A stretch of DNA of 38,957 nt, taken from Sphaerobacterales bacterium. Lineage in GTDB: Bacteria; Chloroflexota; Chloroflexia; Thermomicrobiales; UBA6265. Below, one piece after another: positions 12,261 to 15,098 of this stretch. The position numbers and the translations under genes are program-made. The stretch lies in NCBI GenBank assembly GCA_040376155.1, contig JBEIRG010000001.1, positions 1 to 38,957 on the forward strand, written 5' to 3'. A model generated the notes under the pieces. That model was given only the letters and a program-made list of their open reading frames with translations, had not been told where the DNA came from and did not search any database. Within the stretch, counting starts at the first letter, position 1, and each line of letters begins with the position of its first letter.

Positions 12261-12833
12261 CTAGCGCGATCCGATCGCGAGCAGCGCGAGCCCGGCGACG
12301 ATCAGCAGAAGGTTCAGCGCCCGCGCGCCCGGACGCAGCCGCTCCAGCAGCGACATCGTCTGCTCGGGATCGTAGTGGCGCGCCACCGGCCAGAGCGCGG
12401 TGGACTGCCGCACGACGCCGAAGATGAATCCGCTCGCGAGCCCCTGCCCGATGCTTCCCGTGAACTGGAAGGCGAGCAGCACCATCAGCGCCGTATGGTA
12501 GATCGGCGTATAGAGTCCGCATCCCATCATCAGACCCCAGAGCATGTAGATCTTTTCCGGCGCGGTTCCCCTCGCCCACCGGCGAGGCACCTGCCGCTGA
12601 CGGCCCAACTGGTAGGTCTTCAGCCATACCGCAAGCCCGAGCGCAACCACCGCCGTCGCGCCCACAATCCACGGCCGCCACTGCCCGAGACCCAGGAGCG
12701 TTCCAGCCGCGCCCAGCAGACCACCGACCACTGCGCCGCCAACCCCGGAGGCGACGACGTGGATGATTCCGTAGCGCCAGGCGCGCGCGCTGTCTCCCCG
12801 ACCGAGGAGACCGAGGCTGAGCCCCATGTTCAC
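12261..12833 (-). CDS. Polytopic integral membrane protein of unknown family (about 5-6 TM)
   Basis: Hydrophobic segments include GIIHVVASGVGGAVVGGLLGAAGTLLGL, WIVGATAVVALGLAVWL, IYMLWGLMMGCGLYTPIY, LMVLLAFQF, GLASGFIFGVV and LNLLLIVAGLALLAIG. The start is GTG 12833 or ATG 12827, 3-9 nt after the micro-ORF stop. Confidence 0.65.
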   Translation of the reverse strand: MNMGLSLGLLGRGDSARAWRYGIIHVVASGVGGAVVGGLLGAAGTLLGLGQWRPWIVGATAVVALGLAVWLKTYQLGRQRQVPRRWARGTAPEKIYMLWGLMMGCGLYTPIYHTALMVLLAFQFTGSIGQGLASGFIFGVVRQSTALWPVARHYDPEQTMSLLERLRPGARALNLLLIVAGLALLAIGSR

Positions 12834-12836
12834 CGT

Positions 12837-12902
12837 TCAGGGAACGTGCGCGCTCAGCAGCCCGACCAACCCGGCGAACACGAGCAGCAATCCCGTCTGC
12901 AT
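12837..12902 (-). CDS. Candidate 21-aa single-TM micro-protein (MQTGLLLVFAGLVGLLSAHVP)
   Basis: ATG 12902 has GGTGAGGT about 8 nt upstream. It lies 10 nt after the stop of the Cys-rich gene. Its TGA (12839-12837) sits 3 nt before the start of the membrane protein. The peptide is entirely hydrophobic and helix-like. Evidence is limited to packing, the RBS and composition. Confidence 0.35.
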   Translation of the reverse strand: MQTGLLLVFAGLVGLLSAHVP

Positions 12903-12912
12903 GATCCTGACC

Positions 12913-13395
12913 TCACCCTCGGGCCGGAACCGGTGCGACCGGAGCAACCGGTGCAACCGGAGCGCAACGCCCGGCCCTGGTACATCGCTTCGAGCAGCAG
13001 TAGTCCGCGGTCTCCTTCGTGCAAGGATGAACCTCAAGCCCGCAGCAGACCCATTGATCGTCCAGCCGACCCGTGCAAAGCGACGACCCGCAACATGGTA
13101 GTTCGTCACCGTACACGCATGGGGTTTTATACGGCTTGCAGCACTGCTTGTTGTTCACCATTCGCCGGGTCATGCAGTAATCGCCGCACTGCACCCGGCG
13201 GTCGTTGCACCGACACACGCCATTGTCGCAGTAGGACCCCCGGCAGCAGGCATCATCCGCGCGGCAAGGCATCCCGGGATACCGGCACTCGGCAGCCCGG
13301 GCATCAGGCACGTTCGTCACGATGCCCGCGAGCGCGGCCAGCGATCCCCGCCGGGACATGGCGCGGGCGAGCGCATCGAACCGCTGACCGTCCAT
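12913..13395 (-). CDS. Secreted cysteine-rich protein (22 Cys) with Tat-like leader and three tandem knottin-pattern modules
   Basis: Start is ATG 13395; the longer track ORF is upstream shadow. The leader is MDGQRFDALARAMSRRGSLAALAGIV. The mature part contains three C-x6-C-x5/7-CC-x3/4-C-x4/9-C units and ends in an (APV)3 tail. The start overlaps the upstream gene's stop (TGATG). Confidence 0.7.
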   Translation of the reverse strand: MDGQRFDALARAMSRRGSLAALAGIVTNVPDARAAECRYPGMPCRADDACCRGSYCDNGVCRCNDRRVQCGDYCMTRRMVNNKQCCKPYKTPCVYGDELPCCGSSLCTGRLDDQWVCCGLEVHPCTKETADYCCSKRCTRAGRCAPVAPVAPVAPVPARG

Positions 13396-13901
13396 CAGCC
13401 GCGCCCCGGCCGCGGTCGCTTGCCTACCGCTTCGAAGCGGACGCTCACCCGCTCCCGGCAACCGCACCCATAGGTTCCATCGGGATATTGCGTCGATGGC
13501 CACGGCGATCCAGCGGACAGCACGATCGGGGTGGTGCAACGGCAATCGCAGCACTTCCAGTAGGCGTAGCGGTTGCGGGACGTGCCCTGGCGCTCCAGCG
13601 CGGTGCACCAGCAGGACGCTTCGATCTGTTGCCCGTAGAAGATGGTGTCGGGCGTACACGCGCCGGTGCAGGCCGTACCCTGACACAGGGCAGGATCCGT
13701 ATCGGCGCAGGCGGTCAGGAACGGCATGTTGCACGCGGTATCCTCGGTCAGGCGCACCGCGCACCGGGCGGCGTCAACCTCCCCGCCTGATGCCGCGAGC
13801 GCGGCAAGGTAGGCAAACGCCGCCGCCGCCACGCCCTTCATCGCGCCGCGGCGGGTGGTGCTCCGCGCCACAGCCTCCGCGAGTCGCTCGACCAACCGCA
13901 T
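13395..13901 (-). CDS. Secreted cysteine-rich protein (14 Cys) with Tat-like leader; resembles methylamine dehydrogenase light chain (MauA) in leader and core
   Basis: Start is ATG 13901, with GGAAGGA upstream. The leader is MRLVERLAEAVARSTTRRGAMKGVAAAAFAYLAALAA. The mature part carries 14 Cys, including ASCWC-x16-YWKCCDCRC and GCGC. Confidence 0.7.
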   Translation of the reverse strand: MRLVERLAEAVARSTTRRGAMKGVAAAAFAYLAALAASGGEVDAARCAVRLTEDTACNMPFLTACADTDPALCQGTACTGACTPDTIFYGQQIEASCWCTALERQGTSRNRYAYWKCCDCRCTTPIVLSAGSPWPSTQYPDGTYGCGCRERVSVRFEAVGKRPRPGRG

Positions 13902-14150
13902 CCATCCGTCCTTCCAGCCGCGCGCACGCGCTGGCCGGAACAGACAGTAGCACGGGCATGGCTGCAGGTGCATGGGCGGATCCGGGCCGCCCGCCTCGGG
14001 CGCCTGCGCAAACGCCGAAACGGCGCGATGGCCGGCGGGGCTAGCGCCGTGCATCACGCCGTTTCGAGGAATAGGGGCGACGGGGTGGTTGGGGCACACC
14101 CGTCAACGGGACCAGAATTGCCGCGGGGAGGCAGGAATCGTCTGGAATAG

Positions 14151-14900
14151 TCAGGCGGTGTGGCGGACCGCCGGCCGGCTGGAGGACTGGGAAACCAGCC
14201 ACTGCACGCCGGAGTTGCTCAGCGGCGGGGTGATCTCGACCCAACCCTGCCGCACGGCATGGAGGATCGCGCCGACCCGGTCTTCGGTCTCCAGCTTGCG
14301 GAGGACCGACGTGAAATGATTCTTCACCGTCTGCTCCGTAACGTAAAGCGCCTCGGCGATCTGCTTGTTGGAGAGTCCCTGCGCCGCGCAGTCCAGCACC
14401 GCCAGCTCACGGGTGGAGAGCGGCAGAGCGTCAAGCGCTACAGCGCGACGGGTGGAGACCACCCGCATCTCCGCGCGAAGGCGATTGGCCAGGGCAGGCC
14501 GCGATTGCACCTGCGCCCGGAGAAGATGCTCGCCGGAACAGACCCTGTCGATCGCCTCGAGCAGGCTTGAGGGCGTCAGATCGCGCGGAAGCATCACCAG
14601 CGCCCCGGTGCGGAACGCCTCCAGCATCCGGCCATCGTCGCCAACCATGGACACGAGCGCGATTTTCACCCGCGGGTCTTTCTTGCGAAGGATGCGGGCC
14701 GTCTTCAGACCGGAGATTCCCGGCAACTGGACGTCCAGCACGATCAGGTCGGGGCGGTTCACGTCCGCCGCGTCGATCGCCTCGTGAGCGCATCCCGCCT
14801 CGCCCACGATCCGATATCGTCCGCTGGCCTCCAGCACGCGCCGAACCCCAGCGCGGTAGAGCGGATGGTCATCGACGAGCAAAACTCGCTTGCCTAGCAC
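14151..14900 (-). CDS. NarL/FixJ-family response regulator (REC + LuxR-type HTH), orphan
   Basis: The REC domain shows VLLVDDHPLYRAG and LIVLDVQLPGISG with the phospho-acceptor Asp. The HTH reads LSTRELAVLDCAAQGLSNKQIAEALYVTEQTVKNHFTSVLRKL. Start chosen at GTG 14900, directly after GGGAGGGAG. No histidine kinase is present in the window. Confidence 0.9.
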   Translation of the reverse strand: MLGKRVLLVDDHPLYRAGVRRVLEASGRYRIVGEAGCAHEAIDAADVNRPDLIVLDVQLPGISGLKTARILRKKDPRVKIALVSMVGDDGRMLEAFRTGALVMLPRDLTPSSLLEAIDRVCSGEHLLRAQVQSRPALANRLRAEMRVVSTRRAVALDALPLSTRELAVLDCAAQGLSNKQIAEALYVTEQTVKNHFTSVLRKLETEDRVGAILHAVRQGWVEITPPLSNSGVQWLVSQSSSRPAVRHTA

Positions 14901-15036
14901 AGTGTTCTCCCTCCCAGCCGTTTCGATCCGGGATCCCCATCCCCGGCGCCGCGTCCTCACCCGCCAGCGCCTCCGGACCGATATGAACAATCTACGGCCT
15001 ATGCCGGACAATTACAACGTCCTCAAAGACAACGTT

Positions 15037-15098
15037 TGTTCGTACATTCACTCGTATGCAGTTCGTACGATTACCACCGTACTATGACAATTTGTCAA
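15037..15098 (-). promoter_or_regulatory. Sigma70-like promoter plus operator-like repeats upstream of the response regulator
   Basis: Read on the minus strand: TTGACA (15098-15093), 17 nt, GGTAAT (15075-15070). The perfect palindrome TGACAA-T-TTGTCA (15085-15097) overlaps the -35. Direct repeats GTTCGTAC occur at 15037-15044 and 15061-15068. This is a locally AT-rich island in an otherwise GC-rich sequence. Confidence 0.4.

Follow-up and report, generated by a model that had tools for sequence, protein, structure and literature searches.

The genes fdhF and selD carry an in-frame UGA followed by an intragenic SECIS element, a stem-loop within the coding sequence that presents a G in its apical loop. 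bSECISearch allows 16–37 nt for the distance to this stem-loop. In the CcdA/DsbD proteins, which have about six helices and are paired with TlpA/ResA-type redoxins, a proline precedes the redox residue near or in the first helix, the CcdA motifs being SPC and WTPC. Membrane-integral selenoproteins include the SaoP permease and the MerT-like, YeeE/YedE, and SO_0444 proteins, which are polytopic and contain one selenocysteine (Sec) in or near a transmembrane helix (bioRxiv 10.1101/2022.07.06.499078; 2026 review table). In databases they are typically truncated at the UGA (bioRxiv 10.1101/2022.07.06.499078). In the formation of extracytoplasmic disulfides, MauE was recently shown to be able to replace DsbB (bioRxiv 10.64898/2026.03.05.709764).

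A gene on the minus strand of the window, the whole stretch of 38,957 nucleotides analyzed here, very probably encodes a membrane protein of ~213 residues in which codon 22, a UGA, is read as Sec (Table 1). Like fdhF and selD, it has an in-frame UGA and, within the coding sequence, a stem-loop with a G in the apical loop, positioned within the bSECISearch range. It differs from them in that no Cys homologs were found and in that the protein is membrane-integral, with Sec predicted at the end of the first helix. With SaoP, MerT-like, YeeE/YedE, and SO_0444 it shares a polytopic architecture, a single Sec in or near a transmembrane helix, and truncation in databases, but no sequence relationship, as judged by NCBIfam and Pfam models. 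The genomic context also differs: the known membrane selenoproteins belong to ABC or metal systems, whereas this gene is accompanied by oxidative-folding genes and genes for Cys-rich proteins with twin-arginine (Tat) leaders.

Table 1. Features of the locus, numbered by position in the window; + positions are counted from the UGA.
Feature	Coordinates	Strand	Description
Predicted membrane selenoprotein gene	12261..12902	-	~213 aa, polytopic; joins micro-ORF and membrane ORF
Micro-ORF	12902-12837	-	21 aa, MQTGLLLVFAGLVGLLSAHVP; starts 10 nt past the B stop
In-frame TGA	12837..12839	-	proposed Sec codon (Sec22), motif S-A-H-V-P-U-T-V-N-M
Membrane ORF	12833-12261	-	starts 3 nt beyond the micro-ORF
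First small hairpin	12813..12825	-	+12..+24, GGGGC-UCA-GCCUC (RNAfold)
SECIS-like hairpin	12792..12811	-	+26..+45, GUCUCCUC-GGUC-GGGGAGAC
Protein B	12913..13395	-	160 aa, 22 Cys, Tat-type leader MDGQRFDALARAMSRRGSL
Protein A	13395..13901	-	168 aa, 14 Cys, Tat-type leader MRLVERLAEAVARSTTRRGAMK
NarL/FixJ-type response regulator	14151..14900	-	REC and LuxR/GerE HTH
Conserved 74-aa protein, possibly associated	10405..10629	-	synteny in L003-5, L007
ATP-grasp / L-amino-acid-ligase-type enzyme, possibly associated	9096..10391	-	PF13535, PF18603, PF18130; synteny in L001, L003-5, L007

An in-frame UGA within a predicted membrane protein gene

The open reading frames of the module are all present on the minus strand where the original prediction had placed them, and genes A and B overlap at TGATG (13397–13393) as described. 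The claim that they are packed with almost no spacing holds for this overlap and for the 10 nt between B and the micro-ORF, which has GAGGGTGAGG upstream; it does not hold for the regulator and A, whose gap of 249 nt means that this pair is not tightly packed. The micro-ORF itself had been regarded as encoding an independent protein of 21 residues. It lies in one frame with the membrane ORF (...SAHVP-TGA-TVN-MGLSLG...), only the TGA and three codons separating the two pieces. Because they share this frame they are best counted as one gene, which gives a module of four genes rather than five, and the supposed micro-protein instead supplies the membrane protein with its N-terminal helix, which precedes a presumably recoded UGA.

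The TGA occupies the same codon, ten codons before LLGRG, in each of the 42 complete TGA-bearing homologous loci fetched (36 distinct sequences), and TAA or TAG is never found there. Further complete loci, which bring the complete relatives to about 45, also have TGA at this position, down to ~27% identity. In the distant members the site reads WSP-TGA-GES-M (L051), WSP-TGA-GLS-M (L052), or WSA-TGA-GLS-M (L053), retaining a U-x-x-x-M pattern, and across the superfamily the motif is [A/V/S]-P-U-x-x-x-M, with A-U in one distant member. In the sole member lacking the TGA (P0142/L054), GCA stands at this position and the open reading frame is continuous; this member looks degenerate, and its hairpin loop codon is relaxed from GGT to GGC.

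On both sides of the UGA the frame is open and conserved as protein. Entropy at the first, second, and third codon positions is 0.80/0.47/1.14 in the 16 codons upstream; changes in the flanking codons are almost confined to third positions, and the three codons directly after the UGA vary at third positions only. Among the homologs inspected none has Cys aligned to Sec, the only non-UGA member having Ala, which leaves the classical Sec/Cys alignment test without a Cys partner to align. Selenoprotein families that occur only in the Sec form exist, so the absence of Cys forms does not exclude this protein from the selenoproteins.

Hairpins downstream of the UGA and selD in two host genomes

Two hairpins follow the UGA. 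At the place equivalent to the first, small one, distant members have a stronger hairpin with a compensatory change of G:C to C:G. The second resembles a SECIS element, its GGUC apical loop (12803–12800) lying at +34..+37 after the UGA. Its inner 5 bp are paired in 38/38 sequences, one cell excepted, pair 36–53 covaries between CG, UA, and UG, and 87.8% of cells are paired compared with 52–71% in slid controls. Synonymous sites in the hairpin are likewise frozen, the codons CTC-CTC-GGT being invariant (38/38), although GGT accounts for 13% of the Gly codons elsewhere in these genes. A comparable hairpin follows only 11 of the 844 TGA triplets in the window, and of these only one other has a frame open on both sides. 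Despite differing amino acids, the apical loop of the distant members also begins with a G at +34 (GUC in L052, GGG in L053, CGGGA in L051); a downstream stem-loop with an apical-loop G is conserved as structure. No matching SECIS model was found in Rfam, and the fold of the hairpin from a single sequence was no more stable than shuffles (z = 0.04).

Sec-type selD genes are found in two host MAGs (L015 and L021), which belong to Chloroflexia and not to the window's own Thermomicrobiales lineage. In both, selD lies 7–9 kb from the membrane protein gene, and its catalytic Cys/Sec position is occupied by an in-frame TGA; translated through this codon, it reaches 375 bits against TIGR00476 in a match that spans the TGA. 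The hairpin geometry in these selD genes is the same, with an apical loop from +34 with G. A search for Sec machinery within the window gave none, as did a scan of 25 larger loci for tRNA-Sec. By the standard bacterial mechanism, the stem-loop (GGUC from +34) would recruit SelB carrying Sec-tRNA(Sec), and translation would run from the N-terminal helix (MQTGLLLVFAGLVGLLSAHVP) via U-TVNM to the remainder of the protein.

The membrane protein and its genomic neighbors

About six helices are predicted for the membrane protein, the first from the N-terminal piece and the others from an AF2 model of the C-terminal 190 residues after the TGA (pLDDT 83.6). Based on the positive-inside rule, Sec would be placed where the first helix ends at the inner leaflet, seemingly on the cytoplasmic side. 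When U is replaced by C, the read-through protein gives no Pfam or NCBIfam match; the model, compared without helix 1, has no PDB match, and the family is not among the 119 selenoprotein families listed in a 2026 compilation. Among 1.84 billion representatives, an HMM search recovered 663 relatives. Of the best 150 of these 663, most start immediately past the UGA position, as do all the full-length ones inspected; this is what would result from gene callers treating the UGA as a stop.

The helix number, the Pro before the redox residue (VPU/WSPU here), and the pairing with a TlpA/ResA-type redoxin in relatives recall CcdA/DsbD. Membership in that group (PF02683, PF13386) was rejected on the lack of a Pfam or NCBIfam match and the presence of one conserved redox residue instead of two. 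No CcdA/DsbD fold was matched in the PDB with the model lacking helix 1, and alignment of the two halves with hhalign gave a probability of 0.3% for a 3+3 internal repeat.

Proteins A and B both have Cys-rich domains after their leaders. In A, whose CW and CCDCxC motifs are invariant, this is a beta domain rich in disulfides. The expectation that the Cys framework of A would be conserved is borne out; its 124 homologs are all named hypothetical. The AF2 model of A (pLDDT 86.8) has no PDB fold match, the best PDB hits (E = 0.36, TM ≤ 0.26) including no methylamine dehydrogenase (MADH), and A has no Pfam or NCBIfam match. Protein B contains knottin-like Cys-rich repeats with a sub-threshold match to Dickkopf_N (21.5 bits, cut-off 25) and no PDB sequence match; its homologs are confined to the window's clade (L003-5, L010, L013). 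That the module is undescribed, as first proposed, agrees with these searches.

A helix precedes RR in the long leaders of A and B, which presumably resemble that of the MADH small subunit MauA, a likeness pointed out originally. For A, a relationship to MauA is not supported: neither in sequence nor in fold is it detectably similar to this subunit. PF02975 was not matched in Pfam at E ≤ 1, nor by 14 family members at E ≤ 10; the family profile found no MADH chain among PDB sequences at E ≤ 10; and the partner genes mauB and mauG occur neither among the 26 window ORFs scanned nor in the gene tables of related loci. The hunch pointed in a useful direction nonetheless, because in the sister clade the A and membrane protein pair follows MauE and MauD-like genes, in the order MauE-like (PF07291), MauD-like redoxin, A, selenoprotein. 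At least 12 loci, distant members included, have MauE-like and MauD-like genes upstream. The MauD-like redoxin is membrane-anchored, and its best NCBIfam match, TIGR02661, is below the cut-off of that model. The sister-clade operon shares with the Mau accessory system the CXC membrane protein MauE, a MauD-like CxxC redoxin, and a small disulfide-rich protein with a Tat leader. It differs in that A is not a MauA homolog and the scanned window ORFs and related-locus gene tables contain no MauB or MauG; no counterpart of the predicted selenoprotein has been described in mau clusters, and MauE and MauD are absent from the window and its clade.

Gene A is directly upstream of the membrane protein gene in 28 loci. 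Of the synteny originally anticipated, the co-occurrence of A and the membrane protein is widespread, while B and the regulator are clade-specific. The regulator was correctly recognized as NarL-type: Pfam identifies a receiver (PF00072, Response_reg, 80 bits) and a LuxR/GerE HTH (PF00196, GerE, 65 bits), and the top NCBIfam match is NarL-like, under its equivalog cut-off. It is linked to the membrane protein gene in the window's clade only, at times without A or B: in L003, L004, and L013 it precedes A, and in L011, L012, and L033 it is the gene immediately before the membrane protein gene. In relatives, the gene for the 74-aa protein, which has no Pfam or NCBIfam match, directly follows the membrane protein gene and is itself followed, in the same clade, by the ATP-grasp gene.

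Possible roles of the protein and competing readings

A selenoprotein acting in a redox capacity within a conserved module, here with A and B and under a NarL-type regulator, is on balance the best explanation of the locus as a whole. The protein would be the membrane redox component of this module; tentatively, a selenol/selenenylsulfide relay (diselenide if dimeric) may help to form or re-shuffle the disulfides of exported proteins. Several features speak against a redox function: the single conserved redox residue, the lack of a CcdA/DsbD match, a window without MauE or MauD, and the seemingly cytoplasmic side of Sec. A broader and rather doubtful possibility is that the protein represents a large Sec-only membrane superfamily, a third and indispensable part of MauE/MauD-type disulfide pathways, forming a Se-based folding relay. 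Such a superfamily, spread over soil Chloroflexota and further bacteria, would comprise hundreds of 50%-identity clusters filed as truncated ‘hypothetical proteins’ in databases; the relay would proof-read or drive the folding of Tat-leader Cys-rich exported proteins, and the superfamily may be a main reason that its hosts keep Sec machinery.

If the protein is not a redox relay, Sec could be a soft-metal or metalloid ligand, acting with the Met at +4 and His48 to bind Cu(I), Hg, or Se/S species. This reading is unlikely, and so is its corollary that the protein moves or hands over a metal or cofactor for the Cys-rich secreted proteins. In the aligned superfamily members U-x-x-x-M and His48 do not vary, and only one redox-capable residue is conserved, the Cys of LMMGCGLYTP being Ser in the sister clade; other membrane selenoproteins in the 2026 review are metal transporters, for example the MerT-like family, SO_0444, and a cation ATPase. 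The x-P-U motif also recalls the intramembrane xPC motif of P1B ATPases, a resemblance only. Set against this, no transporter family or fold was matched, the His preceding Sec is not conserved in distant members, and the constant neighbors are the disulfide-forming MauE and MauD-like proteins rather than metal chaperones.

It is very improbable that the UGA is a true stop, with a one-helix peptide of 21 residues and a five-helix protein of 190 residues, made by reinitiation at the ATG 9 nt downstream, assembling in the membrane. Four residues beyond the UGA there is always a Met, as would be expected of a reinitiation start codon; gene callers use this ATG, L051 and L052 carry GGGGAG or GAGGG just upstream of it, and the 190-residue part is confidently folded alone in the AF2 model. 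The lack of a Cys homolog among those inspected points the same way. On the other hand, every member, down to 27% identity, keeps the frame and the 9-nt spacing, TGA is the only stop codon that occurs, and the spacer changes at third positions only. The start is always ATG and never GTG or TTG, with no SD-like sequence in the main family, where many of the N-terminal starts have one. The hairpin would lie 13–32 nt inside the supposed ORF in the geometry of the selD SECIS, and the Ala variant has a continuous ORF.

The proposal that casts A and B as a pair of secreted toxins or effectors, with the membrane protein and micro-peptide as immunity or receptor partner, finds no support and is most improbable. 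Small secreted Cys-rich proteins beside a membrane protein are typical of bacteriocin/immunity loci, an arrangement that this locus shares, and one member of the A family has a chance-level Imm5 match (E = 0.043). Yet the locus is chromosomal and syntenic across the whole order among housekeeping neighbors, has no exporter or processing gene, mostly lacks B, and has oxidative-folding proteins as its conserved partners. Least probable of all is a UGA read in another way (by near-cognate Trp, Cys, or Arg or a suppressor tRNA) or a decaying pseudogene or assembly error: Sec insertion is predicted and host Sec machinery only partly documented, but the SECIS-like hairpin and Sec-type selD favor Sec, and the same TGA in independent assemblies from many samples, together with purifying selection on both sides, excludes the pseudogene and the error.

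If confirmed, the protein would add a membrane-integral, Sec-only family to the bacterial selenoproteome, from soil Thermomicrobiales and Chloroflexia that do not figure in the selenoprotein surveys consulted, and hundreds of truncated gene models would be corrected. The SECIS geometry of these Chloroflexota, with an apical loop from +34, could be used to find other selenoproteins. Two secreted disulfide-rich families, A (with no PDB fold match) and B, are identified as likely clients of the system. Selenium would thereby be linked to extracytoplasmic disulfide formation via the MauE pathway, which was characterized only recently.

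The reading frame across the TGA

Every ORF that the original prediction listed on the minus strand between 12261 and 14900 is present (see table), and its description of the module as previously undescribed stands. The tight packing claimed for five ORFs applies to the last four only, because the regulator lies 249 nt from protein A. The orphan regulator is of the NarL type, as proposed. The promoter placed at 15.07-15.10 kb is unsupported by a promoter/terminator scan of 12000-15300, which gave no consensus sites.

The revision of most consequence concerns the 21-codon ORF, once read as an independent micro-ORF. 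It shares its reading frame with the membrane ORF, and the stop between the two pieces is a TGA (...CTG AGC GCG CAC GTT CCC TGA ACG GTG AAC ATG GGG..., LSAHVP-stop-TVNMG). The central feature of the module thus appears to be a recoded UGA, and 12902-12261 is very likely one gene, representing a new family of membrane selenoproteins. Read-through would produce a ~22-kDa protein of ~213 aa that contains ...HVP-U-TVNMGLSLGLLGR.

Features of the module and of other genes in the window
Feature	Coordinates	Strand	Remarks
947-aa ORF	27390-30233	-	Coding-like GC3; no Pfam match at E <= 0.001
480-aa ORF	15501-16943	-	Coding-like GC3; no Pfam match at E <= 0.001
Regulator	14900-14151	-	Response_reg and GerE domains; top NCBIfam match NarL-like
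Protein A	13901-13395	-	168 aa, 14 Cys
A/B overlap	13397-13393	-	TGATG
Protein B	13395-12913	-	160 aa, 22 Cys
Hydrophobic 21-codon ORF	12902-12837	-	Begins 10 nt past the B stop
Junction TGA	12839-12837	-	Stop between both pieces
Membrane ORF	12833-12261	-	190 codons; next after the 21-codon ORF
RNA hairpin	12811-12792	-	GUCUCCUC-GGUC-GGGGAGAC, +26..+45 after the UGA
223-aa ORF	11545-12216	-	Like the N-terminal ATPase part of MalT only (67 bits, residues 6-178 of 903); no HTH
257-aa ORF	10775-11548	-	Right-handed beta-helix; 4-nt overlap with the 223-aa ORF
74-aa protein	10405-10629	-	Conserved; no family match
Ligase	9096-10391	-	ATP-grasp / L-amino-acid-ligase type
tRNA-Cys(GCA)	6135-6208	+	Sole tRNA in the window

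A search with the read-through protein recovered 102 homologs from Thermomicrobiales or Chloroflexota, all 'hypothetical' and 188-191 aa long, none of which covers the N-terminal 21 residues. DNA around the homologs was taken from metagenome assemblies, GTDB genomes, and JGI metagenomes. TGA is the nearest upstream stop in 42 loci (36 distinct sequences), where it stands exactly ten codons before LLGRG and is preceded by an in-frame hydrophobic helix ending GLL[SNT]AH[VA]P; the other complete loci have the same arrangement. Over the 16 codons upstream of the TGA, entropy at the three codon positions is 0.80/0.47/1.14. Codons flanking the TGA vary synonymously, and the three between TGA and ATG change at third positions only. 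A Shine-Dalgarno (SD)-like sequence is frequent at the N-terminal start and, in the main family, absent at the internal ATG.

Searching 1.84 billion representative proteins with a profile extended the family to 663 relatives (E <= 1e-3); most of the best 150 of these, and all full-length ones inspected, start just past the TGA position. Three distant members (~27% identity) readable as DNA keep the layout with different residues: MGLVLLGLLSGMLASWSP-TGA-GESMVGTIG (L051), ...AAGVAANWSP-TGA-GLSMVQTIG (L052), and MSETLFVGIALAIIAALQSTWSA-TGA-GLSMLSSIT (L053). The sole member without the TGA, P0142 (locus L054), reads GCA (Ala) there, in an ORF that continues across the junction; it also lacks several motifs that are invariant elsewhere. 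One called protein, P0130 (261 aa, without a locus), combines a C-terminal part of MauE type (RCGCFG) with the membrane protein from roughly residue 20 on, skipping the Sec region; this could be a genuine fusion or an artefact of gene calling. L001 carries ~10 tandem copies of the heptamer CACCCAG (9795-9925) immediately before the start of the selenoprotein gene, and L024, a related contig, a shorter array.

RNA hairpins and probable selenocysteine decoding

The window's hairpin recurs across the family: in 38 distinct sequences its inner five pairs form in all but one cell, and paired cells amount to 87.8% versus 52-71% when the partner column is slid. Pair 36-53 covaries as C-G (15), U-A (10), and U-G (4). 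The codons CTC-CTC-GGT are invariant and the following Arg codon is always CGA or CGG, while in the rest of the same genes GGT makes up 13% of Gly, CGA 10% of Arg, and CTC 41% of Leu codons. The Ala variant shows a relaxed loop codon, GGC. The distant members have differing amino acids here, yet form a hairpin at +26..+44 whose loop either opens with G at +34 or contains G there (L052 GUC, L053 GGG, L051 CGGGA).

Directly after the UGA, the distant members form another hairpin, GAUGGU...ACCAUC in L051/L052 and GAUGCU...AGCAUC in L053, where a G:C to C:G swap is brought about by non-synonymous changes (M-V-x-T-I vs M-L-S-S-I). The corresponding first hairpin of the main family was dropped as the primary SECIS because its register shifts between clades. 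A hairpin comparable to the window's follows only 11 of the 844 TGA triplets in the window, and only one other of those 11 lies in an open frame extending both ways, which is not the frame of its gene. Rfam returned no SECIS family match for the UGA region, and single-sequence folding energy there was no better than that of shuffles.

The window contains no Sec machinery, tRNA-Sec was not found in it or in 25 loci, and simple patterns for SelA and SelB signatures gave no match in 385 kb of locus DNA. A motif scan of the 385 kb did locate selD at two loci from Chloroflexia MAGs (L015 and L021), where 7-9 kb separate it from the membrane gene. Both copies have TGA, in frame, where the catalytic Cys or Sec belongs (RLTTLASCAG-TGA-AAKLGPAALAQVL), which makes the selenophosphate synthetase of these MAGs a selenoprotein in its own right. 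Read through the TGA, selD scores 375 bits on TIGR00476 (selD) with a match that spans it, and the RNA that follows forms two hairpins as in the membrane gene, the second loop (GUU or GUA) beginning at +34. In these genomes, then, UGA very probably stands for Sec; the evidence pertains to Chloroflexia and not to the window's own lineage. Judged from sequence, the membrane gene very probably uses the SECIS geometry of selD. The L015 selD occupies 17100-18177 with its TGA at 17176, and the TGA of L021 lies at 18541 (LASCAG-U-AAKLGP at the Cys/Sec site); ORF lists shorten both to 329 aa. Literature on selenocysteine in Thermomicrobiales yielded nothing informative.

The main structural rival is the production of two polypeptides by termination and reinitiation. 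This would account for the invariant ATG, but it leaves unexplained why frame and spacing never change, why stop and start are only ever TGA and ATG, why the spacer varies at third positions, why the hairpin has the geometry seen in selD, and why the Ala variant has a continuous ORF.

The membrane protein

Among 19 full-length members of the proposed selenoprotein family, two of them distant, G14, P21, U22 (the proposed Sec), M26, H48, Q104, P106, W109, T132, and R165 are invariant; L053, outside that alignment, replaces P21 by Ala. Lys and Arg counts suggest that loops 35-45, 98-120, and 175-194 are cytoplasmic, which would give a six-helix protein with its N-terminus outside and with Sec where helix 1 ends at the inner leaflet. 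The AF2 model covers the part after the UGA, and thus not the helix with Sec, and is confident and all-helical (pLDDT 83.6, pTM 0.79).

Pfam and NCBIfam gave nothing usable for the read-through protein, A, or B, and hhalign of the N-terminal against the C-terminal half detected no internal repeat. Nothing resembling the membrane protein is listed among the 119 prokaryotic selenoprotein families compiled in 2026 (PMC13188914). Foldseek searches of the AF2 models of the membrane protein and of A against the PDB returned no significant match, and CcdA-like and MauA-like folds, respectively, were therefore rejected.

Gene neighbourhood and possible function

A-like proteins lie directly upstream of the membrane gene in 28 loci, with the leader M-x-x-V-E-R-x-x-E-x-L-A-R-x-x-x-R-R in common and a conserved Cys framework in which CW and CCDCxC are invariant. 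The A family comprises 124 homologs, all unnamed. No PDB entry, MADH light chains included, was matched by the A profile or by its AF2 model (pLDDT 86.8), and PDB sequence searches with the A profile and with B gave chance matches only. B is confined to the window's clade, as is the regulator, which can directly precede the selenoprotein gene without A or B. In L015, a gene directly downstream of the selenoprotein gene (10708-11250, +) encodes a knottin-like Cys-rich domain together with a leader resembling that of B (MDEQRFDRLARTVGGKRTRR...); a phmmer search with B missed this protein. The leader QRFDxLAR...RR may mark a wider client class.

On the other side, the 223-aa and 257-aa ORFs, which look like an insertion or gene remnant, separate the selenoprotein gene from the 74-aa gene; the latter two are adjacent in L003-5. 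The 74-aa protein and ligase follow the selenoprotein gene in several clade-1 loci (L001, L003-5, L007) and could be a separate small-protein/ligase pair. The position of the tRNA-Cys gene, within a few kb of the Cys-rich cluster, is shared with L003-5 and L012; the closeness is probably coincidental. For the 480-aa ORF, the ortholog in L003 carries a PF26686 (DUF8575) annotation.

In the sister clade, wherever sequence sufficed, the order is MauE-like (CGCFG), membrane-anchored redoxin (PDCEPC), A, selenoprotein. The top NCBIfam match of the redoxin is MauD, at 50 bits below the 188.6-bit cut-off. The distant members also adjoin MauE, and L053 additionally encodes a Trx-like protein and an unrelated Tat-leader Cys-rich protein. 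Genes for a terminase large subunit and an N6/N4 DNA methyltransferase (L053 6167-8136, -) lie ~1.5 kb downstream of the L053 module, and this copy may thus adjoin or lie within a prophage. The window has no MauE or MauD homologs. MauE can replace DsbB via a CXC site (preprint bioRxiv 10.64898/2026.03.05.709764); literature on MauF was uninformative.

In function, the closest analogue of the module is the Mau maturation system, although MauA homology is unsupported. The main functional rival assigns the selenoprotein a role as a metal or metalloid ligand. From its gene context, the selenoprotein might, tentatively, be a selenium-based redox component for the oxidative folding or isomerisation of the Cys-rich exported proteins encoded beside it.
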